From an uncultured Methanolobus sp. (GTDB lineage Archaea > Halobacteriota > Methanosarcinia > Methanosarcinales > Methanosarcinaceae): 64,000 bases of DNA. Positions 15,077 to 41,960 of the stretch are shown here, piece by piece; within the stretch, counting starts at the first letter, position 1; each line of letters starts with the position of its first letter. The notes under the pieces are model-generated. The model made no database searches. It worked only from the letters and a program-made list of their open reading frames with translations, and was not told the origin of the DNA. The stretch lies in NCBI GenBank assembly GCA_963675495.1, contig OY776215.1:352001-416000 (forward strand), written 5' to 3'. A program made the position numbers and the translations under genes.

Positions 15077-15808
15077 CTAAAATCCCACATCAAGCAACCA
15101 TTTAGTAATAATCCCCACAAAAACCGCAATTGCAAAACTCAATAAAGTGCCTATCAATATATATTCACTCACCCTCCTATCGGTTGTAAACCTGAATATT
15201 GATTTTGCAGCAACCAACAAACCTATAGCTTGATACTGGTCAAGCAGCACAAAGGTCAGTAGTAAAAATCGCTCAAGACGACCTATCCACAGACCGGCAT
15301 TCGATAGGCCTGTGCCTTCATTTCCATCTTTGTCATTCTGCCAGGGTTCAGTAAATTTACCTATTACAATACCACTGGGCCAGATTACTACCACATATGC
15401 AACAAGCAAAATCCAGAAATTCGTTCCTGCAAACGGAAGAATGGGCAAGATTTTCATCATTGGTATTAATCCTGCTATAAAGATCCAGGCTACAAGAATG
15501 GTAAACAAATGGGCTGCCTGATCCAGAGTAAACCATCTAAGATCATCTTTTCTGGTTGATTTGAAACCATCGATCAATACATGAGAAAACGCGTAAGCAA
15601 TGAAAAGCCAGACATAACTGAAGGCACCTGAAAGGATATATGCAAGTAAACCGGCAGTCAGACCATGTATGTAAAGCCATTTTGAAAGCCATTTGTTCTC
15701 AAAACGGTCATTTACCATTGATCTGGTCTGGAATACAAAATCAGCAAGCAGGTGTGAAAGAATAAGTTTTGCAAGCAGAGATATATTCAAAAGACCCGGG
15801 TCCATCAC
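15077..15808 (-). CDS. DUF3307 membrane protein
   Basis: HLLADFVFQ, H..ID, DQAAH, G.WIG.LER, AAKSIFRF, EYILIGTL. Confidence 0.85.
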   Translation of the reverse strand: MMDPGLLNISLLAKLILSHLLADFVFQTRSMVNDRFENKWLSKWLYIHGLTAGLLAYILSGAFSYVWLFIAYAFSHVLIDGFKSTRKDDLRWFTLDQAAHLFTILVAWIFIAGLIPMMKILPILPFAGTNFWILLVAYVVVIWPSGIVIGKFTEPWQNDKDGNEGTGLSNAGLWIGRLERFLLLTFVLLDQYQAIGLLVAAKSIFRFTTDRRVSEYILIGTLLSFAIAVFVGIITKWLLDVGF

Positions 15809-16497
15809 TTATCACTCTCTACAAATACATCCTCATATTCAAATAAGTGTTCATAGTTAAAAAGGAACTTCTTAACTGCATCAAAACCCAAAGCTTTCAG
15901 ACTCTGGGAAATCGTTGACTGGGATTTACAGTGTCTTGAGGCTATCTCTTCCTGGGTTGAACCAGAGAGTTTCTCCAGAATTATCTCTTTCTGGATGTTT
16001 GTCCACCTGCCAGCTATGAGATCAAAAAAAGCACATTGGGTCTCAAACATCAGATTCAGCACTGGATCTGAAGTTGTAACCAGCAGATTTTGACCTTTTT
16101 GCTTCATCGTATCAAGTGCTTTTCCGGAAAGTCTGAAAGCCACACCATCGGCTTCTCCTATGTTACCGGAGTCCGGGATATACTCAATTGTTCCAATGCC
16201 AATTGATAACCTTGCCGCAAAATCCTTTGACCCTTCATTGAACAGACTAAGCCTTTGGGATAAGAGTACAGAAGCAAGTAATGCACGATCTGGCTTGCTA
16301 AGAACAACCTGAAAACTATCACCCCTGAATATATCAAAAGGGAGGAAAATCGCATCATGAAGTTGTAAGTGATTCTCTATGAACATGAGAGAATCGCGAA
16401 GATAAGCGATCATTTTTTCTCTGTTTTCGTTTTCCAACTGGGATGACTGTACAAGATCCCCTGTTATGACAGCGTATAATATTTTTTCATTGAGCAA
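15805..16497 (-). CDS. satD: SatD family protein with C-terminal HTH
   Basis: AVITGDLVQS, RGDSFQ, RLSIGIG, DGVAF; TQEEIA..SQSTISQ HTH; 4-bp overlap with DUF3307 gene. Confidence 0.8.
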   Translation of the reverse strand: MLNEKILYAVITGDLVQSSQLENENREKMIAYLRDSLMFIENHLQLHDAIFLPFDIFRGDSFQVVLSKPDRALLASVLLSQRLSLFNEGSKDFAARLSIGIGTIEYIPDSGNIGEADGVAFRLSGKALDTMKQKGQNLLVTTSDPVLNLMFETQCAFFDLIAGRWTNIQKEIILEKLSGSTQEEIASRHCKSQSTISQSLKALGFDAVKKFLFNYEHLFEYEDVFVESDK

Positions 16498-16815: not shown

Positions 16816-18519
16816 TCAATATCTCTTATTTCTTCGGTTGCCAACCATTCCAACCATGAACAACATCAAAGACATCATACCTATTAATGAACTGCTACTA
16901 TTGCCCGTTACTACATTGGCACCAGTCCTTAGCACCGGTGTTGTCTGCATATTCAGTGAATAGGCAGGGTCAATACCCAGTATGAAAAGATCGGTGAGTC
17001 GATAGACATCCGAATTTCCTTCTACCGTGTAGTTCACGTATGTCTGGTTACCAGCAGTCCCATCTGCCTGCATGGTACCTACATCCCACCAATAAGCAGT
17101 TCCTGTAACCGGAGAAAGCACAGATGTACTACCATCAGGATTGGTAACCCAGGAAACATTGGTGAATCCCTGTGGGATTATATCATACACAACTACTGTA
17201 GGAGGTGTAGCAAGATCACCTTTATTGTGTATCCATAAGGAAACATCATAGTAGTCAGGATCAGTATCGTTCTTGGTAATCGTTTTCCTGGCTTCCACAA
17301 GATAACCATTTATGATGTATATTTTTTCAATTACCTCATAAGTACCGTTTATTGTGAGGTAACTTTCACTTAGCTGGTTTCCTGTAAGATCTACACTTAG
17401 ATTTACATCCATCCATCCTACAGGAACGGGGTCAGGAAAATCATATATCTTCCATTCATCCTGCGTCCATACTTCGGATTGTGAAATAGTACCTACACTG
17501 CTATTAACTGAAGTCTCAACTGCCGAACTGTAGTCAAGGTCACTGCTTGTGGTCACATACATTGTTACAGCTGAAACAGTGTAATCTATACTCTCTGTAT
17601 CAGTATTGGTAATAACAGGTGTAAATCCCCAATCATCTCCGCCTGAGCCGCCCTCTGAACTATCTAGTTGGTTCTTCTGCAGATCGAACATGAAGTTAAG
17701 GGTTGTGCCGGTAGGTGTACCTGTAACTGAAACATTATTTCCTGATTGCACCCCATTATTAACTGTGAACTGCAATGTGCCATTGCCTATGAACATTTCC
17801 TGTGCGGACTGTGGTGATGAAGCTATATGAGCTGCACTATCATTCTCAGTAGCCGTGAAAGTCAGGCTGGCATTTGTAACAGATGAGTTAAGTTCTGATA
17901 TCGTCCACATGACAGTGTCCTGTGAAGGATTTGTCACGGCACCTGTATCTGCACTGGCATCAGAGAAACGAAAATCACTTATGGAATTGCTATTGCTGTC
18001 AGAAGCTACTTTTGTGAATGCAATGGAGCTTATTGTTGAGTCAATTTGTCGTTCTATTTCAAGGTTCACATCAATTGAATCATTTATAAGCATCATGTTT
18101 GCTGAATAACTTTCATTAAAAGTGACCGGTCTTGAACCAGAACAATCGTAGTTTATTACCGCAGAGTCACCATGACCAAGATAATTAATGTGCACTTGCA
18201 CAAATGCGCTGTTGCTGGTGTCAAGATATACGCCAGATGAAGACGAAGACCATGTTGATGATAACGTTGTGCCATTATTGAAACTGATGTTCACGTCGTA
18301 TAGATCAGTTGAAGATAATGAATTTGTGATCGTTATCTGTCCTGAACCGGATGCATCACCGCTTGTCAGCGACCCATTGAACAGATCAGTTGCACCAATG
18401 GATTCACTTACCTGAATATCCAGGACCTGCGTCGCTCCTGCAAACGATACAAAGACACAGAATACAAATATGAAAATTGTTATCCCTGTTAAATTACTAT
18501 GCATTCCTTTCCTATCCAA
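16816..18519 (-). CDS. Secreted beta-rich multidomain surface protein with C-terminal TM (candidate filament subunit)
   Basis: Signal peptide, many N-x-S/T sequons, DUF11-like C-terminal domain, hydrophobic tail plus RRNKR. Confidence 0.7.
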   Translation of the reverse strand: MDRKGMHSNLTGITIFIFVFCVFVSFAGATQVLDIQVSESIGATDLFNGSLTSGDASGSGQITITNSLSSTDLYDVNISFNNGTTLSSTWSSSSSGVYLDTSNSAFVQVHINYLGHGDSAVINYDCSGSRPVTFNESYSANMMLINDSIDVNLEIERQIDSTISSIAFTKVASDSNSNSISDFRFSDASADTGAVTNPSQDTVMWTISELNSSVTNASLTFTATENDSAAHIASSPQSAQEMFIGNGTLQFTVNNGVQSGNNVSVTGTPTGTTLNFMFDLQKNQLDSSEGGSGGDDWGFTPVITNTDTESIDYTVSAVTMYVTTSSDLDYSSAVETSVNSSVGTISQSEVWTQDEWKIYDFPDPVPVGWMDVNLSVDLTGNQLSESYLTINGTYEVIEKIYIINGYLVEARKTITKNDTDPDYYDVSLWIHNKGDLATPPTVVVYDIIPQGFTNVSWVTNPDGSTSVLSPVTGTAYWWDVGTMQADGTAGNQTYVNYTVEGNSDVYRLTDLFILGIDPAYSLNMQTTPVLRTGANVVTGNSSSSLIGMMSLMLFMVGMVGNRRNKRY

Positions 18520-18710
18520 AAGAAGCCTCTCCTAAGAATTCCGATAATTATATAATAGATATTATTATTATAACATGTATTGTTTAATTAACATTCAAAT
18601 GTGTATATGTGCAGACACTATATATATTTTAGTATACTTTAAATATATATAATAATTGCGTGCTGTGTAGATCTTGTTAAAAAGGAGGAAGGGAAATAAA
18701 AGTAGCTACA

Positions 18711-19442
18711 ATGATACTGATGCTGGTATCTGTTCTATTGGCAACAAGCATTCCTGCTAATGGGGAAATTTTAGTAGAGGTATGGGAACATTACAATGTA
18801 ACACTTAATGTGCATTCTGAAAGTACACACGTAACTGAAGAACTCACAATCAGGAATGTTATCGATAAAACCGTTGTTCCGGGATATGGATACATAACGC
18901 TCAGTACAGAAAGCAAATCACGTTTTTTAGGACTAACCATCCCTTTTACAGGAAATACTCAAGCCATGGAAATATCAGACGTCTCTGCGAAACTTGATGA
19001 TGGCACAATAATAAATGATGTAGAGGTATCCACCACCGAGAATGAAACCACAATTAAGTATGGATTCTGGATACCTATAATGCCTGGAGAAAGCCGGACA
19101 ATAACGATCGAATATACAACAGATGATATTGTTGAGGATGGACTGGTATTTGACCAGGTCACCTATAGCATACAACCATCCAGCATACCAATTGAAAATG
19201 CAAGGATGGAAGCAAACATTGATGGAAAGCATTTATCGTACTCCAATTATCCTGCCCTAAGTGTCGATGACACAATAGTCTGGACAAATAATAATATAGA
19301 TAACAATACCTGGGAAGTCAACTTTGAATATGGGGCCCTGCCGTTTCCAAAACTTCCCTTCAAATGGTCATTGATTTTTTGGGTAATGATATTTGGAATA
19401 ATATGTTTGTGGTCATACCGCCAGTGGAAATCCGACAAATAA
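18711..19442 (+). CDS. Secreted membrane-anchored beta-sandwich protein
   Basis: Signal peptide, PGESRTITIEY, C-terminal TM. Confidence 0.7.
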   Translation: MILMLVSVLLATSIPANGEILVEVWEHYNVTLNVHSESTHVTEELTIRNVIDKTVVPGYGYITLSTESKSRFLGLTIPFTGNTQAMEISDVSAKLDDGTIINDVEVSTTENETTIKYGFWIPIMPGESRTITIEYTTDDIVEDGLVFDQVTYSIQPSSIPIENARMEANIDGKHLSYSNYPALSVDDTIVWTNNNIDNNTWEVNFEYGALPFPKLPFKWSLIFWVMIFGIICLWSYRQWKSDK

Positions 19443-19447
19443 TATAG

Positions 19448-21826
19448 GTGATTAAAAGGATGAAGGCTACGCTATTCAAACAATTATCACTGATGATCAT
19501 TGTAGCAGTAGCTTTTCAGTTTTCAGCAACAGCACTTGCAGAACAGCCAGTTATAATCACAGACAAAGCATCCTATAATCCCGGGGAAACCGTATATATA
19601 TCCATAAACGAGACAGGCAATGTCACAGCACACGTTATTGACCCATTAAATAGACTAACAGAGCTTACATTAGTCCCATCGGAAGATGCTTATCTTACAG
19701 AATACTTCCCACAGCAGGGAGTGGTTCTGGGTACATACATAATTCTTGTAAGCGGAGAACAGGTCAGTGAGACATGCGAATTCGATATACGGACACTATC
19801 TATAAACACAAGTTTCGAACAACAATATCCTTTAGGCGAGATATTCCTGTCTGGAAATATAACAGATGCTGCTACTCAAGCACCGGTAAATGCATCGGTA
19901 AATATTACGATAGATAACCTGACTGTTAGCACCTATGCTTTAAATGGTATTTTTTCGACGAATTGTTCAACGAACTTAACAGGTCAGAAAGTCGTGAGCA
20001 TTTCAGCTATTGATAACCAGAAAATAACAGGATCAAACACAGCAGAATTCGAGGTATATAATCCTACTACTGTTAACCTGGCCAGCAACACATCACAAAC
20101 TTCTGAAACGGCAACTACATCACCTGTGAGCAACAGTCTGGGCATAACTGCAGAACCACTGGAAACAAACAGTGCTCCCATGCTTTCATTCATCGGCTCA
20201 CAAACAGTCAATGAATCAGAATCTCTGACCATAACACTCAATGCAACTGACCATGATACCGATATACTGACCTACAGTACAAACGCAACTTTTGGAAACC
20301 TCACGGACAACGTTTTCACATGGACACCCGAAATTGGTGATTGCGGCGTTTACTACGTGGAATTCACGGCTTCAGACACTACACTCAACGACACCGAGAT
20401 AGTCACAATAACAGTAAATGCAAAACCTCCTGAGATCAATTCCATTGCAAACACCCCGGACCACTTGCTGCAGGGTGAGACCATAAACATCACAACCAAT
20501 GTGACAGATGTCCGGGCTGTGGACTCAGTGTGGGTTAAAATAAACGGAACGAACTATACTATGCAGAATATTGAAAAGCTAGAGGAATATAGCCTTACGA
20601 TCCAGCCAGGAAACGAAGGAAAGGACTCTTTCCTTTCTAAAAGAAACACTAACAATAACTATGGAACTTCTGAATATATTGGTGTCTCAAATACAAACTT
20701 TCAAGAGAGAGCAGTTCTTGAATTCAATCTTTCAGACATTCCTGCAAACGCAATCATCACCTCTGCACAACTGGAACTTTATTATTATGATGGAGGAGGT
20801 TCCTCAACAGGGCATATAGAAATCCATCGTCTGACCCAAAACTGGACCGAGACAGGAGTTACCTGGAACAACTACGATGGGTCTGCTTCCTGGACCAGCG
20901 CGGGAGGGGATTATGATACAAGGGTGGAAGATACAGTTTCAATAAGTGATGTTTACGGATGGTATGAATGGAACATAACCGATCTCCTTGAAAAATGGTA
21001 CAATGGCACATATACGAACTATGGTGCCATACTTACAAAAGAAGGAAATAAAAACTCTAAGAACTTCTATAGCAGTGATTATTCTAATTCAGATTACCAC
21101 CCAAAGCTTACTATCAACTATACAATTATCAATGCAACAAACGATTGGAACTACATCTTTAACACTTCATCACTATCCTCCAGCATCTATGATTACACGG
21201 TCTACGCAAGCAACACAGCTGGAAGTGAGGCAGTACCACAAACAGCAAACTTCACAGTAAAGGCCAATGAACCACCTATATTAACTCCGATAGGGTCACA
21301 AGCGGTCAATGAATCAGAAACATTGTCCATAAAACTCTCGGCAACTGACCCCGATGAGCAAACGATAACTTACGGCACGAACGCAACATTCGGAAACCTC
21401 ACTGGTAATGTATTTACATGGACAACAGACTACACTAGCAGCGGAGTATATTACGTAGAGTTCACTGCCTCTGATGGCAAGCTTAATGATTCCGAAACCA
21501 TCACAATCACGGTCAATGAAACATACATAGACATCAGCATCATCAAGAGTATCGAGAAGGGAACTGAAGCTGACAGTTACAATGTAAACCTGAAGTTGAC
21601 GAACAATGCAGAATACAATATAACTGGCATTAGACCATATGAGCTCATCCCCTCCAGCTTCCAAGTATCCAGTCCGGCACATAATTACAGCGGTCCCTAT
21701 GGTAATATGTATTACTGGGGCCTGAACCTTGCAGCAGGGGAGAGCAAGACTGTGACGTATGCAGTTAGCGCAAACGGAAAGTATTGTGCTAAAGACCTTT
21801 TCAGAACAGGAGTTGCCAACTCATGA
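19448..21826 (+). CDS. Secreted protein with Ig-like repeats, DNRLRE/disaggregatase-like domain and DUF11-like C-terminal domain
   Basis: TDKASYNPGETV, two N.AP/PP...NESE.L...ATD.D.. Ig repeats, NNNYG...FNLSDIP..I.SA.L.L..W.E...TWN...PKL.I.Y. Confidence 0.8.
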   Translation: MIKRMKATLFKQLSLMIIVAVAFQFSATALAEQPVIITDKASYNPGETVYISINETGNVTAHVIDPLNRLTELTLVPSEDAYLTEYFPQQGVVLGTYIILVSGEQVSETCEFDIRTLSINTSFEQQYPLGEIFLSGNITDAATQAPVNASVNITIDNLTVSTYALNGIFSTNCSTNLTGQKVVSISAIDNQKITGSNTAEFEVYNPTTVNLASNTSQTSETATTSPVSNSLGITAEPLETNSAPMLSFIGSQTVNESESLTITLNATDHDTDILTYSTNATFGNLTDNVFTWTPEIGDCGVYYVEFTASDTTLNDTEIVTITVNAKPPEINSIANTPDHLLQGETINITTNVTDVRAVDSVWVKINGTNYTMQNIEKLEEYSLTIQPGNEGKDSFLSKRNTNNNYGTSEYIGVSNTNFQERAVLEFNLSDIPANAIITSAQLELYYYDGGGSSTGHIEIHRLTQNWTETGVTWNNYDGSASWTSAGGDYDTRVEDTVSISDVYGWYEWNITDLLEKWYNGTYTNYGAILTKEGNKNSKNFYSSDYSNSDYHPKLTINYTIINATNDWNYIFNTSSLSSSIYDYTVYASNTAGSEAVPQTANFTVKANEPPILTPIGSQAVNESETLSIKLSATDPDEQTITYGTNATFGNLTGNVFTWTTDYTSSGVYYVEFTASDGKLNDSETITITVNETYIDISIIKSIEKGTEADSYNVNLKLTNNAEYNITGIRPYELIPSSFQVSSPAHNYSGPYGNMYYWGLNLAAGESKTVTYAVSANGKYCAKDLFRTGVANS

Positions 21827-23118
21827 GATATCAATCTGTGATTCTGATGGTACTGCTTTTATCGGGAATTTTCTTTACATTTAATGCCGATGCTGTACCC
21901 TTGGATCTCCAACTCCGAACTACAGAATATTTAAGCGGTGTGATCTTTTATCCAAATGGAAGTTCTGCTTATGATAATGTGACTGGTATACTGTACCTGA
22001 CAAATCCATCATTGAATCACACTGTTTCGGATATAAGCATAAACTTCAGTGACCAGGTATCTCCTGGATCAAAACATATAAACCACCTTGAACCGAATTC
22101 AAGCACGTCGATACCTTACAGTATAATTATTTCTGACGTCGCCATACCCTTGTCTGTAAGGGAGTCTTTTACACCAACAAAGATCACACAGGGAATAGAA
22201 CAGGAAGTAGTATTCACTGTAACAATGAATAATTCCGGAAATGAGAATATTTCCATAATTGCTTTTGAAAAGGAATTTTCCAATGAACTGGAATATAGAA
22301 CAATAGAATCTTCCAGAGGAAATTTGTCATTTTTAAACAATACCTGTCTTTGGAGTGCGTTTGAGCTGTCACCGTATTCTGAGGAAACGCTCACCATTAC
22401 ATTTGGCATAATGGCTAATTCCGATATCAGCATAAACCCTTCGACCTTATCTTTCATAAGTCCGGTGTATGCAGTTGCAAACAATCTATCGGTTTCCGCA
22501 ATTACTGACACGACATTCACAGTTGAAAAGGAAAAGATCTATGATGACAATTGGAGGGTAGGCGTTATAGTTGAAGATTCCAGTGATTTTGACTATTCAC
22601 TTTATCGGGTAGAAGTATACGTTTCTGATACAATGCTCAATGATACAACACTGATAAAGGAGTATGATCTTAATACCACTCTTAATCCAGGTGACTCATG
22701 GAATGACTGGTTTTTCTACGAATATGAAGGAACACCTGTATTCTTTGCCAGAATATTTTACACGATATCTTACAGCATCTCCGGTACTTCCATGCCTTTG
22801 ACAGCATCACAAAGCGGAGGATTTATTATCAGTTCGACTGTTCAACCGCTTAGCGAGATTGAAAGCTCAATTGGCGGTATGGTCGAACCCGCACAAGCAG
22901 ATACTCCAGCAGAGAATATTTCACAGAACATAACTGAACATCTTCAGTACAACATAACCCAGATAGAAAGTATTAGTCCATTGTTCCAGACAAAACCAAT
23001 TATTAATGAACAAAATGAGAAAACATCATTTATTGATATTGAAAAAGTTCAATATGTCGCATATGTAGTATTTGGCGCAGGTGCTATGCTGCTTGTTCTT
23101 GGTAAAACTAAGTTTTGA
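21823..23118 (+). CDS. Secreted membrane-anchored paralog of the 567-aa protein (candidate filament anchor)
   Basis: Aligns by eye to the N-terminal and middle domains of 16816-18519; C-terminal stalk plus TM; ATGA overlap with upstream gene. Confidence 0.7.
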   Translation: MRYQSVILMVLLLSGIFFTFNADAVPLDLQLRTTEYLSGVIFYPNGSSAYDNVTGILYLTNPSLNHTVSDISINFSDQVSPGSKHINHLEPNSSTSIPYSIIISDVAIPLSVRESFTPTKITQGIEQEVVFTVTMNNSGNENISIIAFEKEFSNELEYRTIESSRGNLSFLNNTCLWSAFELSPYSEETLTITFGIMANSDISINPSTLSFISPVYAVANNLSVSAITDTTFTVEKEKIYDDNWRVGVIVEDSSDFDYSLYRVEVYVSDTMLNDTTLIKEYDLNTTLNPGDSWNDWFFYEYEGTPVFFARIFYTISYSISGTSMPLTASQSGGFIISSTVQPLSEIESSIGGMVEPAQADTPAENISQNITEHLQYNITQIESISPLFQTKPIINEQNEKTSFIDIEKVQYVAYVVFGAGAMLLVLGKTKF

Positions 23119-23581: not shown

Positions 23582-24307
23582 TTGAGGTTGAACATCAGAT
23601 TACTTACAGTTGCAGCAGTTGTCTTTCTTATATTCATGACTTCAGGTTGTGTATCAGACAGCACTGAAGACAATAATATCAATACAACGCCAGATGCTGA
23701 TGAACATACAGAAAATACCGACGATGCTAATGTGACAACAGGCGCAATAACGTCTCTTAGCCATGGGTATTCAGAGAATGACAGCCAGAGCACAGTCTAT
23801 GCTATTGTTGGCGATACAATTGTTGTTGACCTTAAAGAGAATCCCACAACCGGATATTCATGGAATATGACATACAGTAGCGGACTTGAGCTTAAAGATG
23901 ATATGTTCCTTCAAGAAAGCATGCATGTAAACCTTGCAGGTGTAGGTGGTTCTCACAAATGGATCTTTGAAGTTACTGACACAGAAGAGCAGAACATATC
24001 CGCAGTATACATCCGTCCATGGGAAGAAAGGACAGGAATCGAGAACAGCTATAATCTGGCTATAATTGTACTTGCTGAAAATGAACTTATAACCAACAAC
24101 GGAAAGGTAACATACAACGATATTGAAGGCGGTTTCTATGGAATCACTGGAACTGATGACGTAAAGTATGATCCTGTAAACCTACCTGAAGACTTGAGTA
24201 CTGATGACACAGAGATTAGATTTACAGCCTATCCACGTGATGATATGGTGAGTTTCCACATGTGGGGACAGATCATAGAATTAAGGACCATCGATCAGGT
24301 CTTATAA
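23582..24307 (+). CDS. Lipoprotein with I42 (chagasin) protease-inhibitor domain
   Basis: SGC lipobox; ENPTTGYSW, GVGG, RPWE chagasin motifs. Confidence 0.88.
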   Translation: MRLNIRLLTVAAVVFLIFMTSGCVSDSTEDNNINTTPDADEHTENTDDANVTTGAITSLSHGYSENDSQSTVYAIVGDTIVVDLKENPTTGYSWNMTYSSGLELKDDMFLQESMHVNLAGVGGSHKWIFEVTDTEEQNISAVYIRPWEERTGIENSYNLAIIVLAENELITNNGKVTYNDIEGGFYGITGTDDVKYDPVNLPEDLSTDDTEIRFTAYPRDDMVSFHMWGQIIELRTIDQVL

Positions 24308-28030: not shown

Positions 28031-29040
<1,010 letters not shown>

Positions 29041-29715: not shown

Positions 29716-30191
29716 CAGGATATTCGTGTCAGTAAATACTAGAATTTACTAGAATTCAATTCTAAAAAAACTATTTTGACCAACCTGGATATAGTTGCTG
29801 GATTTTTTGAAACGAACGTTACAAAATAAGCTGATGCACAAATAACAATTAATTTTCAATGATAATAATTCCAGACACTTCAGTTAAAATTAAGGCGAAC
29901 TTCTTGAAATTGTGTATACATGCACCCATAATATCCCATCGCGATGGGAGGATATTTAAATATCTATCACAATACTTCAGTAATATTTATATAAAAAAAA
30001 GTATATTTATTTTAAATAATAATTTGCATTATAAAAACAAACAATTGCAGATTAGATCATAATTGGAAGGGAGCTATAATTGCAGGTTATGAACTTAGGA
30101 ATGTTTTAATCTTTAATTGCACCCCCCCCTAAATTTACAATAAAAACTCATAATGTTGGTGATTGTACACAATTTGTTTGGAGGAAAACTA

Positions 30192-30809
30192 TTGGAAAGA
30201 GAACTCTTATTCAGTATAATGATCATTGCAGTCGTAGCTCTTTTGATCGGAGGTGGAACCTACGCATATTTCAGTGATACTGAAAGCAGCGAAGATAATA
30301 CCATCACAGCAGGTACACTGGACCTAAGTGTTGATGATGAAAATCCCTGGACAAGCACCAAGCTCACGGTAACTAATGCAATACCTGGTTCAAGTGGCTC
30401 CGTCACCATGACATTAAAAAATGAAGGGAGCGCAGACGGCCTCAGCCTGACCGTTAATATTACTAATGTCGCTGATGGACCAGGAACCACACCCGAATCA
30501 GAACCTACACCAGATAATGGTGAACTTAGTCAAAATACGGACATAGTATTGTGGGAGGACACTAATTATGATGGGGTAATAGATGAGGGTGAGGATGAAA
30601 TCTATAACAATACCCTCAGTGCTGCTACCACAGGTCCATGGGAGATCGGCGCTCTTGCCGCTGGTGCTACCAATTATGTCAGTTTATCCTATGAGATCGA
30701 TGAAACAGTTGGAAATGAGATACAGGGAGATAACTGCAGCTTTAACATCGTATACGTTCTTAGCCAAAACTTAATCAGATCAAAGATTGCAGTTCCGATC
30801 ATGCCATAA
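30192..30809 (+). CDS. TasA/camelysin-like protein with SipW-type signal peptide (duplicate of 32201-32785; C-terminus runs into the permease relic)
   Basis: TTG start after GGAGG; GGGTYAYFSDTE, GTLDL, PG.SG, N.G, NEIQGD. Confidence 0.85.
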   Translation: MERELLFSIMIIAVVALLIGGGTYAYFSDTESSEDNTITAGTLDLSVDDENPWTSTKLTVTNAIPGSSGSVTMTLKNEGSADGLSLTVNITNVADGPGTTPESEPTPDNGELSQNTDIVLWEDTNYDGVIDEGEDEIYNNTLSAATTGPWEIGALAAGATNYVSLSYEIDETVGNEIQGDNCSFNIVYVLSQNLIRSKIAVPIMP

Positions 30810-31708
30810 AGTGCCGTTGTCAGACCACCCAATACAGGTGCAGGAATAGAGGCCAGCAGGCTGGAGAATTTGGGGATTAGCGAGAGCAGTATTAGAATAA
30901 CTGCACCGATTAGCACAAGCTGGACACTTGATATTTTTGTAAGGTCCACAAGACCGATGCTCTCTGAATAGCTGGTTGTACCACAGGCAACAAATACACC
31001 GGCAATAGAACAGGAAAGACCTTCCGAACCAATACCACGGTTTATCTTCTTATTATCTATGGGAAGGTCTGTTATCGTTGATATGGCATGGTAGTCACCT
31101 ACACTTTCTATAATGCTCACCATGAAGGCAAAAATAATTATGATTATGGGGCTGATGTCAAATACCGGAAATCCCCATGGAAACAATTTAGGAAGGATCA
31201 AAAGTGGAAGGCTTTTCACAAGCCTGAAATCAACCATTCCAAATTCGATACTCAGGATGTAACCTACCAATACACCCGCAATTACCGACATGGTGTTGAA
31301 AGTACCTTTTAGAGAGAAAACCATAAGCATGATGGTTATACCCTTTACAAGAGGTGAGAAAAGGTTTTTCAGTTTACCGATGAGTCCTAAAGCCCCCTGT
31401 TAGCCTTTCGATGATACCACCTACGGTCAAAGCACCTTCCATCGCAGCAAGCCCAATACCCGAGCTTATGGAGATAAGAGCGGGAATGAAAGCAAAACGT
31501 GATCCCTGTACTATCGGGAACTTAGAACAATGAAGGTCTGCAAAAGAGTGGCAATAGTCATTGCCAGAAGAACAGACTGCATCAGCAGTGCAATATCTGA
31601 AAGTTGAAGACTTATGGCAGAACCAACCACAAGAGGAACTATGATGGTTGCACCGAACATTGCCAGCACATGCTGAAATCCTAAAACAATTCGTTTCATA
31701 TAAATCAC
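30790..31708 (-). pseudogene. NCS2 uracil/xanthine permease fragment, copy 2
   Basis: QHVLAMFGAT, ESVGDY, TTSYSESIG, PVLGG; frameshifts and internal deletion. Confidence 0.85.
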
Positions 31709-32200
31709 CAGGATATTCGTGTCAGTAAATATTAGAATTTACTAGAATTCAATTCTAAAAAAACTATTTTGACCAACCTGGATATAGTTGCTGGATTTTT
31801 TGAAACGAACGTTACAAAATAAGCTGATGCACAAATAACAATTAATTTTCAATGATAATAATTCCAGACACTTCAGTTAAAATTAAGATATAGCTCTTAA
31901 AAATCGAATGCATGCATTTTTAGAATTAAACTACATGATTTCGAAATTTTTATTTTTAATTTATTATGCAACATTTTAGTTAAATATATATATAATAACA
32001 AAAATACATTATTAAAATAATATTAATTATAATAATATTAAACAATTGCACAATTATCATACTTGGAAAGGAACCATCACTATAGGTTAACACCCATAAG
32101 ATATGAATTCATATCATGAATGATTTAGCCTCGAATTTACAACCCTATTTCCAACAAAAATGTATGTCCATAATAATTGTGAAATATTGGAGGAAAAATA

Positions 32201-32785
32201 TTGGACAGAAAACTCTTATTCAGTATAATGACTATTGCAGTCGTAGCTCTTTTGATCGGAGGTGGAACCTACGCATATTTCAGTGATACTGAAAGCAGCG
32301 AAGATAATACCATCACAGCAGGTACACTGGACCTAAGTGTTGATGATGAAAATCCCTGGACAAGCACCAAGCTCACGGTAACTAATGCAATACCTGGTTC
32401 AAGTGGCTCCGTCACTATGACATTAGAAAATGAAGGGAGCGCAGACGGCCTCAGCCTGACTCTTGATGTTACTGATATCGCTGATGGACCAGGAACCACA
32501 CCCGAATCGGAACCCACATCAGATAATGGTGAACTTAGTCAAAACACGGACATAGTATTGTGGGAGGACACTAATTATGATGGGGTAATAGATGAGGGTG
32601 AGGATGAAATCTATAACAATACCCTCAGTGCTACTGCTACCAACGGTCCATGGGAAATCGGTCCACTTGCCGCTGGTGCCACCAACTATGTCGGATTATA
32701 TTATGAGATCGATGAAACAGTTGGAAATGAGATCCAGGGAGATAACTGCAGCTTTAACATCGTATACGTCCTTAGCCAATATTAA
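32201..32785 (+). CDS. tasA: TasA-family major subunit candidate
   Basis: SipW-dependent signal (GGGTYA|YFSDTE), GTLDL, PGSSG, ENEGS, NEIQGD..FNIVYVLSQ; immediately upstream of sipW. Confidence 0.85.
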   Translation: MDRKLLFSIMTIAVVALLIGGGTYAYFSDTESSEDNTITAGTLDLSVDDENPWTSTKLTVTNAIPGSSGSVTMTLENEGSADGLSLTLDVTDIADGPGTTPESEPTSDNGELSQNTDIVLWEDTNYDGVIDEGEDEIYNNTLSATATNGPWEIGPLAAGATNYVGLYYEIDETVGNEIQGDNCSFNIVYVLSQY

Positions 32786-32854
32786 GAATAATTAATAGTG
32801 ATGGTGATGAGCCTCCTATTAATTCCGTTTTTTAAGGGAAAAAAGGAATGTGAG

Positions 32855-33367
32855 ATGGGAAAACTGCTAAAGCATGCAAGTACGTTTTTACTTGTACTAC
32901 TTATAATGATAGCTTTGTTCACATTCATTGCACCAAATTTTGGATGGAGCATAGATGCTGTGAAATCTGGAAGTATGGAACCAGAAATATCGACTGGAGA
33001 CCTTGTTGTAACAAAACCAGTTAATGCAGATGAAATTAAAGCTGGAGACATCATCACTTTTACTACTTCATCCAAAAAAAGACTCACGACCCACAGAGTT
33101 ATAGCCATCGGGGAGGAAGGCCAGCTACAATTCCAGACCAAAGGTGATGCAAATGAAGATGCAGACATTTATATGGTTCCTGAAAATAATGTGGTTGGAA
33201 AGGTCTATCTCAAAATACCCTATTTTGGTTATGTCAGCCAGTTCATAAAAACCCCAATTGGTTTTGTGCTGACTTTTTGCATACCCGGCATTATGATTAT
33301 CCTTCAGGAGGTAAGAAAACTCTGGCAAGCGCGGGATAATAGCAAAGATACAGAGAAGGGAACATAA
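32855..33367 (+). CDS. sipW: Signal peptidase I, SipW/ER-type (S26B)
   Basis: SGSMEP catalytic Ser, THRV His, TKGDAN..D, IPYFGY; start set at MGKLL. Confidence 0.93.
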   Translation: MGKLLKHASTFLLVLLIMIALFTFIAPNFGWSIDAVKSGSMEPEISTGDLVVTKPVNADEIKAGDIITFTTSSKKRLTTHRVIAIGEEGQLQFQTKGDANEDADIYMVPENNVVGKVYLKIPYFGYVSQFIKTPIGFVLTFCIPGIMIILQEVRKLWQARDNSKDTEKGT

Positions 33368-33368
33368 G

Positions 33369-36300
33369 ATGGAGTTTAAGTCTATCCTTTCAATTGTATC
33401 AATTGGTATTATATTGCTGCTGGCAATTAATAGCGGTTTTACAAACTGCTTATACATAGATGTTGAGACTTCCAGTAACAATATTTTTGGAGCCTGGACT
33501 TCCACACTCTGGACACAGACAACTGAAGCAGATTTTAGCGCCGGGGTCCTTAGTGATATTAATGTTTCAGCAAGTTCAGGAGATGCCATCGCAGATGGTT
33601 GTGAACTTTCCGAGATTTGGTATAACGATGCATGGCTTTACAGGAAAGAAATTGTTCTGAATAATTCCGGCTCTGCACTTTCAGACTATCAGGTCAAGGT
33701 TGATCTGGCCTATGATGACCAGATGCAGTCTGATTTTGATGACATAAGGTTTGTAGATTCTGATGGAATTACACAACTTTTTTGCTGGCTTGATGACTAT
33801 AATGATTCAATATCTGCCACTTTCTGGGTTAGGGTCCCTGATATCCCTTCAGGTGGCAAAACCATCTACACCTATTATGGTAATGATGACGCTCTTAGTG
33901 CCAGCAATGGATCTCAGACATTTCTATTCTATGATGACTTTGAGGAATATGATGAAGGCGATGTCCCCCGGAACTGGGAAATAAAGGATTCTAATAGCAG
34001 TACATGGAATCTTACAGATAGTTCTGATTACATCTATAATAGCTCAAAGATAGAATTTGAAGACGGCTATGCCCAGCTTATTGGCACGTCAGATCCAGAA
34101 TGGTGGGATGGAGATTGGAGATACCGTGTATACCTTGATGTGAACACAAGTAGCCATAACAGGACCGATCCGGTAGTCACATGGAATGCCAATTTCACAT
34201 CCCTCTTAAATAACCCTGATCTGACATTTGATGATAACTCAATAAGGGTAATTGAGTATGACCCTATCGGAAATATCCTTGGGGAAAGAACATCACAATT
34301 GATAAAAGAAAACAGTTATGATGCTTCCAATAACGCTGTTGGGGATGTAATATGGATCCTTAATGGCTCCACAATGTCCAATACTTCAAGGTACTATTAC
34401 GCTTACTTCGATACAACTACAAACCCCAAGAATGCGGCTGGATATACCAATATTTCCATAAATTCAGACACAGATTATGCAGATCAAAATGGAGTATGGT
34501 ACGAGATAAGTGAAAAACTTCACTGGAAACTCCATGAGAGCAAAGGAGGATTGTACAATGATATTAACTGGGACAATTCCAGCCATACCTATAGCACTAC
34601 TGACCACTGGGAATTTGGCACAAATATGCGCCCAGCTCCTGATCAGGAACACATGCAACCCTCTTTTGGAAGCATGACAACTGATTCTCCAGAAGTAGGT
34701 CCTATAAAACTCAAATTCTATCAGCATTACAGTGATGGTTCCTATGTGGAGACTATTTACTACAAGGACCAGCCCTGGATGAAGGTCATCTATCATTATT
34801 ATACTAGCTGGAATGGTAATCTCTGGGAGATCGAATCAGTTGCGGAGGTGGGAGCAAATGCCAACCTTGTTGCCTGGGATAGTCCCGATTATCAGAGTGC
34901 TGTCATGGCAGGTGATCTATCTTCTATAATTTACAATGTAAATATGAGTGGAGCATGGCATTCTGAGGTACTTGACGATAGTAGCTGGCATGACAATCCA
35001 TCTAAGTACATGAGTACATTAAACCAACAGGATGTTGAATGGTACTTCATTTACAAGGAACCTAATGTAGATACACAAGCAGAGGCGCAACCCATAATAG
35101 AAGAGGTGATCACGCCTGTGAACGTTACCCAGGGAGCGGTTTCAAATCCTTCATATTCCAATGATGCTCCAAGCATTCAGCCTGTTACTGGATATTCCTA
35201 TGATTCAATATGCAATTTCAGTTCCATTCAGGGACCTGACAATCAGGGTGAAATAAGATATCAGATAAGTAATGATAAGATTAGCTGGTATTATCATGAT
35301 GGAACAGACTGGGTGGTTTCTTCAGGATTTGCCCAAACCAACAGCGTAGAAGATGTTGAGTCTAGTGTAGGCAGCCTGGAGGATGATATTGGTCCGGGTA
35401 TTTTCTATTTCAAAGCCTTTTTGTCTAGCGATGGGACCCAGCAGGTCCAGCTCGATGAAATAAGCATCTCAAGATCCACTGTAGAAGTCCGGTCGGATGC
35501 CGGAAATAAGGTATTGTATGATGGCAATGGAGTGGGCGGAAATGTTGTCGCCGGAAACTTCTCCTGGACAGACATTGCCTGCAGACAGATGTTCAGATCA
35601 ATTGATGGGAACATATCTAATGCAGGGCTTGTTGTTCATTATACAAACGAGACACGTGAAGTATACGGTGGGATCATAAGTAACACAATAACACAACTGT
35701 GGGAAAGAAATGAATCTGCTTCATGGGCCGATGCTAGTGGATGGAATCAGATCGGTGGCAACTGGAATATTTCCGATGTTGGCACCAGCTGGCATATGCA
35801 AGAGCTGAGGGTATTGAATAGTACGGTAGATTTCTACCTCGATGACGTATATATCGGCAATACAACATTGGATCCCGATGCACCTATTTCTGGAAAAACT
35901 GGTTTTTGGAGCCAGTATGGTGAAGAAGGCTATAGGGACGAACATATCGTTCGCAGATATGCTTTTCCTGAACCTGTAACTGTTGTGGGTTCCAAAGAAT
36001 ACCAGTATGATGAACAGTGGAATTTCAAAAAGAAAATTACAATAGACCACACAAAGGTCGAAGCTGACCTGACAGACTTCCCTGTTCTGATCAACATTTC
36101 ATCAGACTCTGACCTTGTTGCTCATGCACAGGCAGATGGCGATGATATTCTGTTCACAGATACTAATAATAACAAACTCAGCCATGAGTTTGAAGAATTC
36201 GATGGTGGCACTGGCAAACTGATATCATGGGTAAAAGTTCCGGAGCTATCCAGTACTACAGACACCGAGATCTACATGCGCTATGGCAATCCTACATGCG

Positions 36301-38321
36301 AAAGTCAGGAAAATGCCAGCGGTGTCTGGGACGACAATTTCCAGATGGTGCAGCACATGGAAGAGACTTCAGGAAGCCATGCTGATTCAACAGTTCTGGG
36401 GAATGATCTCACACCTCAGGGATCCATTGATCAAAATGCTGTCGGAATTATCGGAGGCGCAAATTACTATGACGGTATTGATGATTATCTCTCACGAACA
36501 GATGCCATACTTAACGGAGATATCCCTGCCAAAAGCACAGGAAGTGCTAATTATTTCACACTCAGCGCCTGGGTCAAGTTGACTGGCAGTTCAGAAAGAT
36601 ATCCATTGATAGTGAAACAGGGAGACTGGGATACAAATATGGATAGAGGTTTTCTCGTTGGGGCCACTTCCAGCTATTACCTTGAAAGTGAGGTATTTCG
36701 TGGAAATGACGGAACCAATGACAAGTCCGAACTTTCATCGACTCAGGCACTTTCAGCAGATCAATGGTATTATGTTACCTACACTTACGATTACGTCACC
36801 GACGGCACATCAAAGATGTACATTTATTTGAATGGAGTACAGAATGGAAGCAATGAACTTGCTTACGGACCTCCCATCGAGAATACCAGAGATCTCTACA
36901 TTGGACACTATTATTGGTCCGGATCATACAATAAATACTTCAAGGGAAATATCGATGAAGTACGTATCTCAAATACTGTCAGAAGTGAAGGCTGGATCAA
37001 AACCAGTTATAACAACCAATATTCTTCTTCAACCTTTTATGACATAGGTTCAGAGGAAGGCGAGTGTCCTGTCACCACAGGTACTATTGCATCCCAGATC
37101 CTTGAATCAGGTCATGAGAATTATAATAAGAAAATTACTATCGACCACACAAAGGTGGATGGAGAGCTTACAGATTTTCCGGTATTGATAAGTCTATCAA
37201 CAGATGCTGATCTGGCTGCCCATACACAAAGTGACGGGGACGATATATTCTTTACTGCAGCAGATGACACAAGGCTTAGCCATGAGATCGAGGAATACAA
37301 TAGTTCCACTGGAGAACTTATCGCATGGGTGAAGATCCCAACCCTTTCCAATACTACGGACACGGATATTTACATGCAATATGGTGATCAAAGTTGTGGA
37401 AGTCAGGAAAATGCCGCTGATGTCTGGGACAGCAACTTCCTTATGGTCCAGCATCTGAACAATTTGAACTCAACAACTACAGAAGATAGTACGTCTAACA
37501 ATTATGATGGTACAAAGACCGCTGTCGATGAACCTCTTGAGGTTGATGGGATGATCGGAAATGCACAGTATTTTGATGGATCCAATGACCACGTAAATGT
37601 TGGAGTAATGAATCATAACATAGGTTACGGAAATTATACATGGTCAGTCTGGGCAAAAACTCCAGACGCATACAACAACATCAATCCAATAATGACAAAC
37701 GGAAATTATGCCCCTGCGATCTATACTAAAACATACCAGCACACCGAATGGGGTACATACTATGAAAGCTACAGAAGAACTGGCACTGTTCTTTCCCTGA
37801 ATACATGGTACCATCTGGTGGTTCAGAGAGAGGATGGAATTGTTAGATTCTATCAGGATGGAGTATTACTCCCCATCAACCATTCTTTCGTTTTTTCCAT
37901 GGCAAATAGTGAATTTTATATCGGCAGGAGTGGAGCTGGGTGGTATGGAAGGAATACAGTAGATGAGGCAAGGGTATCGAATACAGTCAGAAGTGAAAGC
38001 TGGGTCAAGACATCTTACAATAACCAGTTCTCGCCTTCTACATTTTATAGCGTCGGTCCGGAGAATTACCAGATCAATATAGATGGATTGTTCTGGGATG
38101 AAACTCTTGCATCGGGAACTGACATAAGCTTTGATATCAGGGCATCAGACACTCTTTTTCTCAAAGATGATGCAGCACCTTCCTGGACATCGATCGGGGG
38201 AACATCGCCGGTTACTTCAGGGTTGCCTTCCGGTAAATATGTGCAATGGCGTGCAACGTTGACCTGTGCAGAAGGGAAAACTCCAATACTGCATGAGGTA
38301 AGACTTTATTATCATAGCTAA
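33369..38321 (+). CDS. 1650-aa surface adhesin: SipW-type N-terminal strand, DUF2341 and LamG/ConA domains
   Basis: N-terminus ..FTNCLYIDVETSSNNIFGAW; repeated KKITIDHTKV..DFPVLI..DDI.F...WVK.P modules; LamG-like W(Y/H)..V..Y.(N/D)G and DE.R.SN. Confidence 0.85.
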   Translation: MEFKSILSIVSIGIILLLAINSGFTNCLYIDVETSSNNIFGAWTSTLWTQTTEADFSAGVLSDINVSASSGDAIADGCELSEIWYNDAWLYRKEIVLNNSGSALSDYQVKVDLAYDDQMQSDFDDIRFVDSDGITQLFCWLDDYNDSISATFWVRVPDIPSGGKTIYTYYGNDDALSASNGSQTFLFYDDFEEYDEGDVPRNWEIKDSNSSTWNLTDSSDYIYNSSKIEFEDGYAQLIGTSDPEWWDGDWRYRVYLDVNTSSHNRTDPVVTWNANFTSLLNNPDLTFDDNSIRVIEYDPIGNILGERTSQLIKENSYDASNNAVGDVIWILNGSTMSNTSRYYYAYFDTTTNPKNAAGYTNISINSDTDYADQNGVWYEISEKLHWKLHESKGGLYNDINWDNSSHTYSTTDHWEFGTNMRPAPDQEHMQPSFGSMTTDSPEVGPIKLKFYQHYSDGSYVETIYYKDQPWMKVIYHYYTSWNGNLWEIESVAEVGANANLVAWDSPDYQSAVMAGDLSSIIYNVNMSGAWHSEVLDDSSWHDNPSKYMSTLNQQDVEWYFIYKEPNVDTQAEAQPIIEEVITPVNVTQGAVSNPSYSNDAPSIQPVTGYSYDSICNFSSIQGPDNQGEIRYQISNDKISWYYHDGTDWVVSSGFAQTNSVEDVESSVGSLEDDIGPGIFYFKAFLSSDGTQQVQLDEISISRSTVEVRSDAGNKVLYDGNGVGGNVVAGNFSWTDIACRQMFRSIDGNISNAGLVVHYTNETREVYGGIISNTITQLWERNESASWADASGWNQIGGNWNISDVGTSWHMQELRVLNSTVDFYLDDVYIGNTTLDPDAPISGKTGFWSQYGEEGYRDEHIVRRYAFPEPVTVVGSKEYQYDEQWNFKKKITIDHTKVEADLTDFPVLINISSDSDLVAHAQADGDDILFTDTNNNKLSHEFEEFDGGTGKLISWVKVPELSSTTDTEIYMRYGNPTCESQENASGVWDDNFQMVQHMEETSGSHADSTVLGNDLTPQGSIDQNAVGIIGGANYYDGIDDYLSRTDAILNGDIPAKSTGSANYFTLSAWVKLTGSSERYPLIVKQGDWDTNMDRGFLVGATSSYYLESEVFRGNDGTNDKSELSSTQALSADQWYYVTYTYDYVTDGTSKMYIYLNGVQNGSNELAYGPPIENTRDLYIGHYYWSGSYNKYFKGNIDEVRISNTVRSEGWIKTSYNNQYSSSTFYDIGSEEGECPVTTGTIASQILESGHENYNKKITIDHTKVDGELTDFPVLISLSTDADLAAHTQSDGDDIFFTAADDTRLSHEIEEYNSSTGELIAWVKIPTLSNTTDTDIYMQYGDQSCGSQENAADVWDSNFLMVQHLNNLNSTTTEDSTSNNYDGTKTAVDEPLEVDGMIGNAQYFDGSNDHVNVGVMNHNIGYGNYTWSVWAKTPDAYNNINPIMTNGNYAPAIYTKTYQHTEWGTYYESYRRTGTVLSLNTWYHLVVQREDGIVRFYQDGVLLPINHSFVFSMANSEFYIGRSGAGWYGRNTVDEARVSNTVRSESWVKTSYNNQFSPSTFYSVGPENYQINIDGLFWDETLASGTDISFDIRASDTLFLKDDAAPSWTSIGGTSPVTSGLPSGKYVQWRATLTCAEGKTPILHEVRLYYHS

Positions 38322-38447
38322 AGGAAAATATACTTCAGAAAATAATTGGAAAAAGGCTATCATTATTGACCATAAAGCCATGGGTTTGATATATTTTCAA
38401 AAATAAATCATAGTATCAATGTTTGTACCCAATTTAGGAGGAGTTTA

Positions 38448-40520: not shown

Positions 40521-40596
40521 AGCTAATGGCATTATTGACATATGATGAATTATAAATACTAACTGCTCTCCGATTACTCTATATTTGACTTAATGA

Positions 40597-40683
40597 AAAT
40601 ATATTCAGTGGCGTGCAACTTTGACCAGCACAGAAGGAAATACTCCCATGTTGCATGAGGTAAGACTTTATTATCATACTTGA
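40597..40683 (+). pseudogene. 3' relic of a second large adhesin gene
   Basis: Translates KYIQWRATLTSTEGNTPMLHEVRLYYHT*, matching the end of the 1650-aa protein (KYVQWRATLTCAEGKTPILHEVRLYYHS*). Confidence 0.85.
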
Positions 40684-40701
40684 AAAAGGGAATCTAAGAT
40701 A

Positions 40702-41547: not shown

Positions 41548-41960
41548 CTAATCTGGATATAGTTTCTGGAATTCAGTAAATGAATGTTTCGAAATAATAA
41601 AATGAACAAATGAGAGTTCATACCATTTGAAAGAACACACACATTTCAATCAAATATGGATATTGATCGAAAAATATCTCACCCATACTTTTAATATTCC
41701 AGTATCTGTATCAGAAAATAATTGATTTGATATTTATGAAATTAATTTAGCAATATTTATATATTATACATGAATATTGAAATTATATTCACAATAAAAT
41801 CGAACAATTGCACAGTAGAATATAATTGGAAGATATATCATTGCATATTATAACCCCAGGGATATGAAAGGTCTCAGGAATAATATGAGCTCTGATCATA
41901 TTTCAGCTTCCAACTAAAAATTATAATGCCTCCAATTGTACACAGGTTTGAGGAAATTCA

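Follow-up and report, generated by a model that had tools for sequence, protein, structure and literature searches.

A 64,000-nucleotide stretch of the genome of an uncultured Methanolobus sp. (contig OY776215.1, positions 352,001 to 416,000; here termed the window) contains a cluster of four genes for proteins of 567, 243, 792, and 431 amino acids (aa), which we interpret with moderate confidence as encoding a modular plug-and-socket assembly on the cell surface. In this assembly, the 431-aa protein would serve as the anchor, the 792-aa protein as a glycan-binding tip, and the 567-aa protein as a two-ended link. The interpretation combines the observed homologies, gene conservation, and domain inventory with a predicted joint between the 792-aa and 431-aa proteins; we infer that the 567-aa protein uses the same joint in trans, and we infer likewise the length of any resulting chain and the role of the 243-aa protein. 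The original prediction, made without database searches, had read these genes as a filament system of a non-TasA type, with the 567-aa protein as polymer subunit, the 792-aa protein as tip, the 431-aa protein as anchor, and the 243-aa protein as assembly factor. Its split homology, its separation from TasA, and the conserved gene set are upheld by the analyses below, as is, at the level of a structural model, a complementary interface, which is predicted for tip and anchor where the original prediction had placed contacts between tip and subunit and between subunit and anchor; a true filament is possible, and the plug-and-socket surface assembly is the best-supported form of the idea.

The four open reading frames (ORFs) are located where they had been placed, and the motifs quoted for them are present in the translations. 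The genes for the 243-aa (18711..19442), 792-aa (19448..21826), and 431-aa (21823..23118) proteins run head to tail on the plus strand, with the start of the last overlapping the stop of the 792-aa gene (ATGA). The gene for the 567-aa protein, the window's representative of a family of 38 proteins, lies on the minus strand (16816..18519) and diverges from the other three across an AT-rich spacer of 191 bp (18520..18710). With TATA-like runs on either strand and a purine-rich tract ahead of the 243-aa gene, this spacer is a putative divergent promoter region. All four translations begin with a signal peptide-like hydrophobic segment, and a C-terminal hydrophobic helix is present in the 567-, 243-, and 431-aa proteins but not in the 792-aa protein. 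N-glycosylation sequons occur at 3.35, 4.29, and 3.48 per 100 aa in the 567-, 792-, and 431-aa proteins, respectively, and at 1.23 in the 243-aa protein, against a genomic background of 0.64 (open frames of at least 200 aa), so that their density in the first three is 5 to 7 times that of the genome's long open frames.

The central observation is that the 567-aa protein is partitioned between two of its neighbors. Since pairwise BLASTP comparisons were too weak to decide the matter (567-aa versus 431-aa protein, a marginal E of 0.02 with 22% identity over 281 columns; 567-aa versus 792-aa protein, a C-terminal match within a long alignment with an E of 7.9), family profiles built from orthologues in other genomes were compared with hhalign. 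The 567-aa family aligned with the 431-aa family with a probability of 98.3% (E = 1.4e-14), pairing approximately residues 1 to 385 of the former with 1 to 330 of the latter, and residues 407 to 518 of the 567-aa protein aligned with the last ~100 residues of the 792-aa family with a probability of 99.0% (E = 2.4e-18). The negative controls (the 243-aa family against each of the other three and the 431-aa against the 792-aa family) gave probabilities of no more than 2.2%. The 567-aa family profile further matched the C termini of neighboring ORFs encoding cargo-type proteins in four other genomes (G051, G176, G184, and G150; E of ~1e-11). The partition noticed in the original prediction is thereby confirmed.

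We term the shared N-terminal region, consisting of three β-sandwich domains (D1 to D3), the socket and the shared fourth domain (D4), a β-sandwich of ~110 residues, the plug. Read from these alignments, the 567-aa protein would consist of the socket (residues 31 to 405; 17305..18429, minus strand), the plug (406 to 518; 16966..17304), a conserved tail recognized in an alignment of 28 homologues (519 to 531; 16927..16965), and a C-terminal membrane helix with a basic end (543 to 567; 16819..16893; modeled helix 543 to 566, with conserved G557 and G560). The 431-aa protein would correspondingly be a socket followed by a stalk and a membrane helix, and the 792-aa protein a cargo region followed by the plug (residues 693 to 792; 21524..21823, plus strand), at whose last strand the protein ends. 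A plug profile (alignment A5) matched only the 567-aa and 792-aa ORFs in the genome, a single contig of 2.87 Mb, which argues that the plug is not a generic immunoglobulin (Ig)-like module. Besides these two plug ORFs, the genome has a single socket of either type and a single 243-aa protein. The 567-aa protein is regarded as two-ended because it holds both halves of the joint.

The pair of the 792-aa and 431-aa proteins was chosen for complex prediction because these two must act in trans if they act at all. Residues 24 to 350 of the 431-aa protein (21-row alignment) and the last 113 residues of the 792-aa protein (8 rows) gave interface scores (ipSAE) of 0.79, 0.81, and 0.79, and the best of three controls gave 0.00. 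Calibration of the mark against which these scores were read had 58 of 80 solved complexes passing, along with 2 of 110 mismatched pairs; it is rough in the present case, which relied on our own shallow alignments. At least 93% of the contacts are shared among the runs, and the partners have predicted local distance difference test (pLDDT) values of 77 to 79. In the predicted register, residues 229 to 237 of the 431-aa protein run antiparallel to the first strand of the plug (plug residues 16 to 23, i.e., 695 to 702 of the 792-aa protein), residues 308 to 310 pair with its last strand (plug residues 107 to 109, i.e., 786 to 788), and the D1 loops at 66 to 70 and 87 to 90 touch the plug. No residue of the 431-aa protein beyond 312 contacts the plug in a construct that extends to 350; contacts of residues other than those named are uncertain. 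Thus, the 792-aa plug is predicted to dock on the 431-aa socket by two-edged β-strand pairing, and a complementary interface of the kind that the original prediction needs is seen, in the model, between the C-terminal domain of one and the N-terminal domains of the other. We know of no similar complex, and recall of a structure by the predictor seems unlikely. A folded domain clamped through two of its edge strands by a three-domain socket differs from both donor-strand exchange and the cohesin-dockerin interaction.

The two partners have the features expected of cargo and anchor. The 792-aa protein is of the secreted type, without a membrane anchor, and has 34 N-glycosylation sequons. It comprises Ig-like domains and, at residues 391 to 557, a DNRLRE/CBM96/disaggregatase-repeat domain (NF033679, E = 9.4e-37; Pfam and NCBIfam searches), on which we read it as a protein of the carbohydrate-binding adhesin type. 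Its plug begins ~2 residues after the preceding Ig domain. In three lineages, the cargo proteins stop 0 to 3 residues past the last strand of the plug, and across loci their length ranges from 645 to ~2,500 aa with the plug always kept; varying cargo length with a constant plug is what would be expected of an exchangeable tip. The 431-aa protein consists of a signal peptide, the socket (25 to 342), a low-complexity stalk (343 to 408), and the membrane helix (409 to 431). DUF11 (PF01345) is detected in its residues 118 to 202 (33.3 bits against a cutoff of 24.6), a match that covers one domain and is silent on function; the same label is precomputed on most of its homologues. The membrane helix is the last element of the window's 431-aa protein and of its Methanococcoides relatives. 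Outside Methanolobus and Methanococcoides, anchors of this type have a conserved cytoplasmic domain of ~100 residues after the helix (L059:2669-4528, L010:3194-5044, L013:4277-6010, and L049:10632-12074, among others); in the first of these, a weak match to the PIN domain (PF01850; E = 6.5e-4) scores 20.7 bits, below the cutoff of 23.6.

Within the 567-aa family, the residues equivalent to the socket interface are the best-conserved part of the ectodomain (mean of 0.78 versus 0.65), a value reached by 18 of 10,000 random residue sets in a test that ignores the blockwise conservation of strands. The D3-D4 junction consists of only 3 to 4 residues, and G405, Y406, E409, and K412 are invariant. 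The tail after the plug, which has pLDDT values below 50 in the AlphaFold2 model, is kept from Methanosarcinales to the 567-like proteins of a further family (f9; see below). Judging from its conservation, selection must act on it, and a processing site, a strand extending the joint, and a contact for the 243-aa protein are candidate explanations. As for database labels, PF27408 is precomputed on 37 of 38 family members and DUF11 on 2 of 38 homologues, and an Atlas search with the 567-aa protein returned generic DUF11 leads only, with scores of at most 0.84. We also considered an intermolecular isopeptide bond from an invariant socket lysine (K236 of the 431-aa and K282 of the 567-aa protein) to an acidic or amide side chain in the first strand of the plug. 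The partner position is E in the 567-aa protein, D or N in most cargo proteins, and H or T in those of Methanocellaceae, and the idea was dropped as having no support.

Comparative analysis bears out the conservation of the four-gene set in other archaea and across orders, namely in Methanosarcinales (including ANME-2), in Methanocellaceae, and in the third family, f9. All four genes are found in the window, in Methanococcoides (L007), in Methanosarcina and its relatives (L010, L012, L013, and L016), and in Methanocellaceae (L018 and L019), and one more full set is present in L059. In these nine loci, which hold both genes, the stop of the cargo gene overlaps or abuts the start of the anchor gene without exception (9/9). 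Four further loci (L011, L014, L004, and L006) have the 243-aa gene and the beginning of the cargo gene before the locus or contig ends, which is consistent with the set, and three (L015, L017, and L020) are fragments. The order is collinear in Methanocellaceae: 567-aa gene, 243-aa gene, a cargo of 1,742 to 1,751 aa, and the anchor. In seven f9 loci, the order is a 567-like gene (619 to 709 aa), a 243-like gene, and a 431-like gene (465 to 545 aa), the product of the last being a homologue of the 431-aa protein by hhalign (98.6%, E = 8.7e-16). A plug-ending cargo ORF is adjacent in two f9 loci only (L051 and L057); by the A5 profile, all five f9 genomes examined nonetheless have exactly two plug ORFs, the 567-like one and a single cargo of 645 to 2,504 aa located elsewhere. 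An argument for docking of the 567-aa plug on the 431-aa socket from the absence of any plug-only protein in the f9 genomes lacking an adjacent cargo fell on this result, as each has one elsewhere. Five g38 genomes have a similar plug inventory, with the 567-like copy fragmentary in three, and a 243/431-like pair that is unlinked from the 567-like gene. Of 251 Methanosarcinales genomes, 16 match the 567-aa profile (12 of the 166 of high quality; 6 of 31 genera). The 243-aa profile is matched by 28 of 401 genomes drawn from the phylum at large, all in families f1, f2, f15, and f9.

In another Methanolobus (G020; L005/L008), the C-terminal part of the 567-aa gene, from about residue 282 and with one TAG inside, abuts the C-terminal part of the 431-aa gene, from about residue 296, an arrangement that implies a deletion remnant from which ~5 kb in between was lost. 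In L016:9917-11658 (G150), the 567-aa homologue is split into ORFs of 323 and 225 aa by a frameshift or an assembly error.

On the basis of the above, the assembly can be pictured as follows. The 431-aa protein would form the base, presenting its socket on a flexible stalk held by a membrane helix, and the 792-aa protein, a secreted and heavily N-glycosylatable cargo of carbohydrate-binding type ending exactly at the plug, would form the tip. Their joint would be made by two edge strands of the socket, one pairing with the plug's first strand and the other with its last. Having both socket and plug, the 567-aa protein may link tip and base or may add to itself head to tail; in the chain we favor, the 792-aa plug would enter the 567-aa socket and the 567-aa plug the 431-aa socket, with extension by 567-on-567 docking a possibility. 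For the 243-aa protein, whose gene travels with that of the anchor, a role at the membrane is probable, in export, glycosylation, or assembly. Docking of the 567-aa protein in trans would not be precluded by its short D3-D4 junction, since the plug of the 792-aa protein follows its Ig domain after ~2 residues and yet is predicted to dock in trans. In the model, moreover, the lack of any plug contact beyond residue 312 of the 431-aa protein suggests that the C terminus of the socket lies away from the N terminus of the plug, unlike what docking in cis would need.

Several observations weigh against this picture. The AlphaFold2 (AF2) model of the 567-aa protein, all-β apart from the helix at 543 to 566, has a mean pLDDT of 75 with a predicted template modeling score of 0.52; with pLDDT values of 60 to 69 at the D3-D4 junction, it is uninformative on whether the plug docks in cis or in trans. 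The plug interface residues show no excess conservation over the remaining ones (0.66 versus 0.67), and those of the 431-aa protein only a weak one, with 796 of 10,000 random sets reaching their value. The 567-aa protein keeps its C-terminal membrane helix ~25 residues after the plug, an arrangement more in keeping with tethering to the membrane than with a released fiber subunit. Neither it nor the 431-aa protein matches an NCBIfam family at an E of ≤1, its tail has no PGF/PEF-type sorting motif, and a search for sortase (PF04203), positive in 3 of 14 reference genomes as a control, found nothing in the 100%-complete genome. The patchy spread of the cluster implies that it is dispensable, and in one locus (L009), over 10 kb upstream and 5.5 kb downstream, none of the other three genes accompanies the 567-aa gene.

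Next to the plug-and-socket assembly, the alternative that survives best is the true filament of the original prediction, which we regard as possible though doubtful. Here, the 567-aa protein would be the major subunit, freed from its helix at the conserved tail and stacked plug into socket, with the 431-aa protein as the base and the 792-aa protein as the distal cap. The parts list of one plug-only, one socket-only, and one plug-plus-socket protein per genome fits such a design. In Methanosarcinales, the 567-aa gene lies on a promoter side of its own, and it comes first in the collinear clusters of Methanocellaceae and f9, as major pilin genes often do, and the tail is conserved across families, with the cargo proteins ending exactly where it starts. 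Further, the 431-aa protein would be redundant as an anchor if the 567-aa protein stayed in the membrane. The same cap logic has been proposed for the Sulfolobus threads, whose putative cap, Saci_0405, has a donor strand and lacks an acceptor site (PMC9715654).

Against the filament, the searches turned up neither a processing enzyme nor a sorting signal of known type. Domain searches of the cluster and its neighbors detected no protease gene within it, and no LPXTG motif was noticed on reading the four translations, of which no pattern search was made. The tail of the 567-aa protein bears no likeness to the PGF- or PEF-type tails seen elsewhere in the genome. We also tried self-cleavage at the Asp-Pro bond at the end of the plug as a general mechanism and rejected it: D517-P518 is invariant in the 567-aa family but absent from some cargo plugs, those of the window's 792-aa protein, L007, and L013 ending in GVANS, GIDTV, and GVAPQ, so that such cleavage is unlikely as a common chemistry. 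As a separate observation, many proteins of this genome have PGF- or PEF-type C-terminal tails, yet a single exosortase-family gene was found, ~320 kb from the cluster (G000:C1:691953-692681).

An arrangement in closed units appears unlikely to us. The 431-aa and 792-aa proteins would then form an anchor-cargo pair, and the 567-aa protein would be a fused paralogue whose plug fills its own socket or takes part in a reciprocal dimer, acting separately as a membrane-tethered protein. The very short and highly conserved D3-D4 junction is as would be expected of a fixed intramolecular arrangement, the 567-aa protein has its own membrane helix, it stands alone in L009, and the g38 pairs are unlinked from it. 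The model speaks against this, if only suggestively: with no residue past 312 of the 431-aa protein contacting the plug, the C terminus of the socket does not seem placed for docking in cis through a link of 3 to 4 residues. The strict co-occurrence of the 567-aa protein with the other parts in three lineages also points to a joint function.

We consider it highly improbable that these are unrelated surface glycoproteins that share common Ig-like modules without specific docking, the complex model being a false pass. It is true that archaeal surface proteins often contain Ig-like and DUF11-type domains, that the Atlas leads for the 567-aa protein are generic, and that the alignments behind the complex model are shallow. 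This explanation has to contend, however, with a plug profile that is specific to two ORFs of the whole genome, with conserved synteny including the stop/start overlap, and with an interface score far from those of the controls and a clean strand register. Least probable of all is a surface sensor, in which the socket-anchor would be a receptor passing the state of its ligand (plug bound or not, or cargo load) to the PIN-like cytoplasmic domain conserved in the Methanosarcina, Methanocellaceae, and f9 homologues, as that domain is dispensable for the cluster's role here, being absent from the window's 431-aa protein and its Methanococcoides relatives, and its PIN match is below threshold.

The socket of the 567-aa protein (residues 29 to 398) superposes on the mu-homology domain, the best match being 9fiw_M (Z of 14.9; root mean square deviation of 3.7; 235 of 252 residues aligned). 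Ten mu-homology entries are recovered at Z values of 12.4 to 14.9, followed by single pilin-type, CLIPPER, and cohesin-type sandwiches at 9 to 12, and Foldseek recovers the same likeness with E values of 1.9e-10 to 1e-7; no Pfam match of the mu-homology family to the socket was obtained at an E of ≤1. The fold thus resembles the mu-homology domains of mu2, delta-COP, and the muniscins, which bind linear motifs by strand pairing. Those proteins are cytosolic and eukaryotic, whereas the 567-aa protein is extracellular, glycosylated, and archaeal and has an extra domain, and the likeness may reflect a shared way of nesting two β-sandwiches.

Cellulosome scaffolds comprise dockerin-bearing enzymes, an adaptor scaffoldin, and a cell-anchoring scaffoldin. 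The proposed assembly would share with them three tiers (connector-only cargo, connector-plus-receptor adaptor, and cell-bound receptor), a modular noncovalent joint, and exchangeable cargo. Cohesin modules are also among the fold matches of the socket region, at a Z of ~9 (4dh2_C, 2vo8_A, and 4uyp_A), although no Pfam match to cohesin or dockerin occurs in the four proteins. Cellulosomes differ in their calcium-binding helical dockerin, their cohesin arrays, and their anchoring by SLH domains, in place of which we find a β-sandwich plug, a single socket, and membrane helices.

Pili built by donor-strand complementation (chaperone-usher, type V, and TasA/archaeal bundling pili and the Sulfolobus threads) are reminiscent of the cluster in their pairing of β strands between neighbors and in having end pieces with one half of the joint, and their subunits are likewise exported by the Sec pathway and glycosylated. 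In those fibers, one strand completes an incomplete fold, while in our model a whole folded domain would dock by two edge strands; domain searches of the cluster found no usher, chaperone, or TasA-type domain. The separation from TasA is further supported by the lack of any Peptidase_M73 match at an E of ≤1 in the four proteins, as against five such proteins in another cluster of the window (see below). Sortase-assembled pili, for their part, also have tip, shaft, and base encoded together and a shaft protein with a C-terminal hydrophobic helix and basic end, and the socket has fold matches to their Ig-like/CnaB-type components RrgB, BcpA, EbpB, and LrpA (Z of 9.6 to 11.2). Unlike those pili, the cluster lies in a genome without sortase, and its joint is predicted to be noncovalent.

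With its β-rich ectodomain (AF2 pLDDT of 77.7) and one strongly conserved membrane helix, the 243-aa protein is of the single-pass membrane type. Its residues 20 to 213 resemble the membrane-proximal lumenal domain of ribophorin I (6s7o_E; Z of 15.3; root mean square deviation of 3.1; 173 residues aligned) and of Ost1 (6c26_1; Z of 14.7). Foldseek likewise matches it to oligosaccharyltransferase (OST) subunits (E = 4.5e-7), and the language-model lead is a Ribophorin_I cluster (0.85). In both the 243-aa protein and ribophorin I/Ost1, a single membrane helix follows the lumenal-type domain. The likeness is not matched at the level of sequence families, Ribophorin_I (PF04597) having no Pfam match to the 243-aa protein at an E of ≤1, and other β-saddle domains score close behind, with lpg2210 at a Z of 13.3 and the N domains of M1 aminopeptidases at 10 to 12. 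DUF2207_N is matched below its cutoff (E = 0.0089; 16.7 bits versus 24.4), solved structures searched with the 243-aa sequence profile gave chance matches only (E of 0.5 to 0.6), and 10 clusters of distant relatives have no informative name. We also considered the 243-aa protein as a paralogue of the other three and rejected this on the hhalign comparisons above. In all loci holding them, the 243-aa gene adjoins the anchor gene or is separated from it by the cargo gene alone, and the protein probably works at the membrane with the anchor, in export, glycosylation, or assembly.

In the literature searched on mu homology and DUF11 surface proteins (including PMC5898192), DUF2207, ribophorin, and archaeal donor-strand filaments, we found no publication on this cluster, and none of the DUF2207 literature found was archaeal. 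Methanosarcinales, ANME-2, and Methanocellales live in aggregates, biofilms, and syntrophic consortia, and little is known of the means by which their cells attach to partners and polymers. A conserved and self-contained kit, in which a two-ended extender is combined with a stalked anchor and a tip that binds glycans and can be exchanged, would offer a simple, engineerable means of displaying proteins on archaeal cells and may underlie an undescribed adhesive stalk or fiber. The mu-homology-like and ribophorin I-like folds would, if the homology is true, bear on the origin of those eukaryotic modules. It is conceivable, if rather unlikely, that the cluster represents a new class of surface fiber of methanogens and ANME-2, in which helix-held subunits would be released at the tail and stacked by whole-domain plug-into-socket docking between a stalked base and a variable glycan-binding tip, the socket and accessory folds hinting at older extracellular prokaryotic relatives.

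The TasA-type cluster of the same window (30153-42611) has five Peptidase_M73 (TasA/camelysin) proteins (30153-30809, 32201-32785, 38448-40520, 40702-41547, and 41961-42611), an S26 signal peptidase (32798-33367), and a 1,650-aa DUF2341/Laminin_G protein (33369-38321). Residues 254 to 324 of the 792-aa protein share 73% identity with the C-terminal Big_9 domain of the 690-aa TasA-like protein in that cluster (20207-20419 versus 40296-40508), and the stalk and membrane helix of the 431-aa protein (353 to 429) are 34% identical to the end of that cluster's 281-aa TasA-like protein (22879-23109 versus 41287-41523). On account of these matches, the two surface systems of the window are seen to share modules.

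Immediately downstream of the four genes, a 241-aa protein (23582-24307) contains a chagasin-family peptidase inhibitor I42 domain; its gene is kept only in a close relative (L008). Beside the 567-aa gene, a SatD-family gene and a DUF3307 gene form an overlapping pair (15077-16497) that is conserved with the cluster no further than the closest relative. A 258-aa ORF (28031-28807) has a partial match to a DDE transposase, covering profile positions 30 to 131 of 200, and is probably a fragment.

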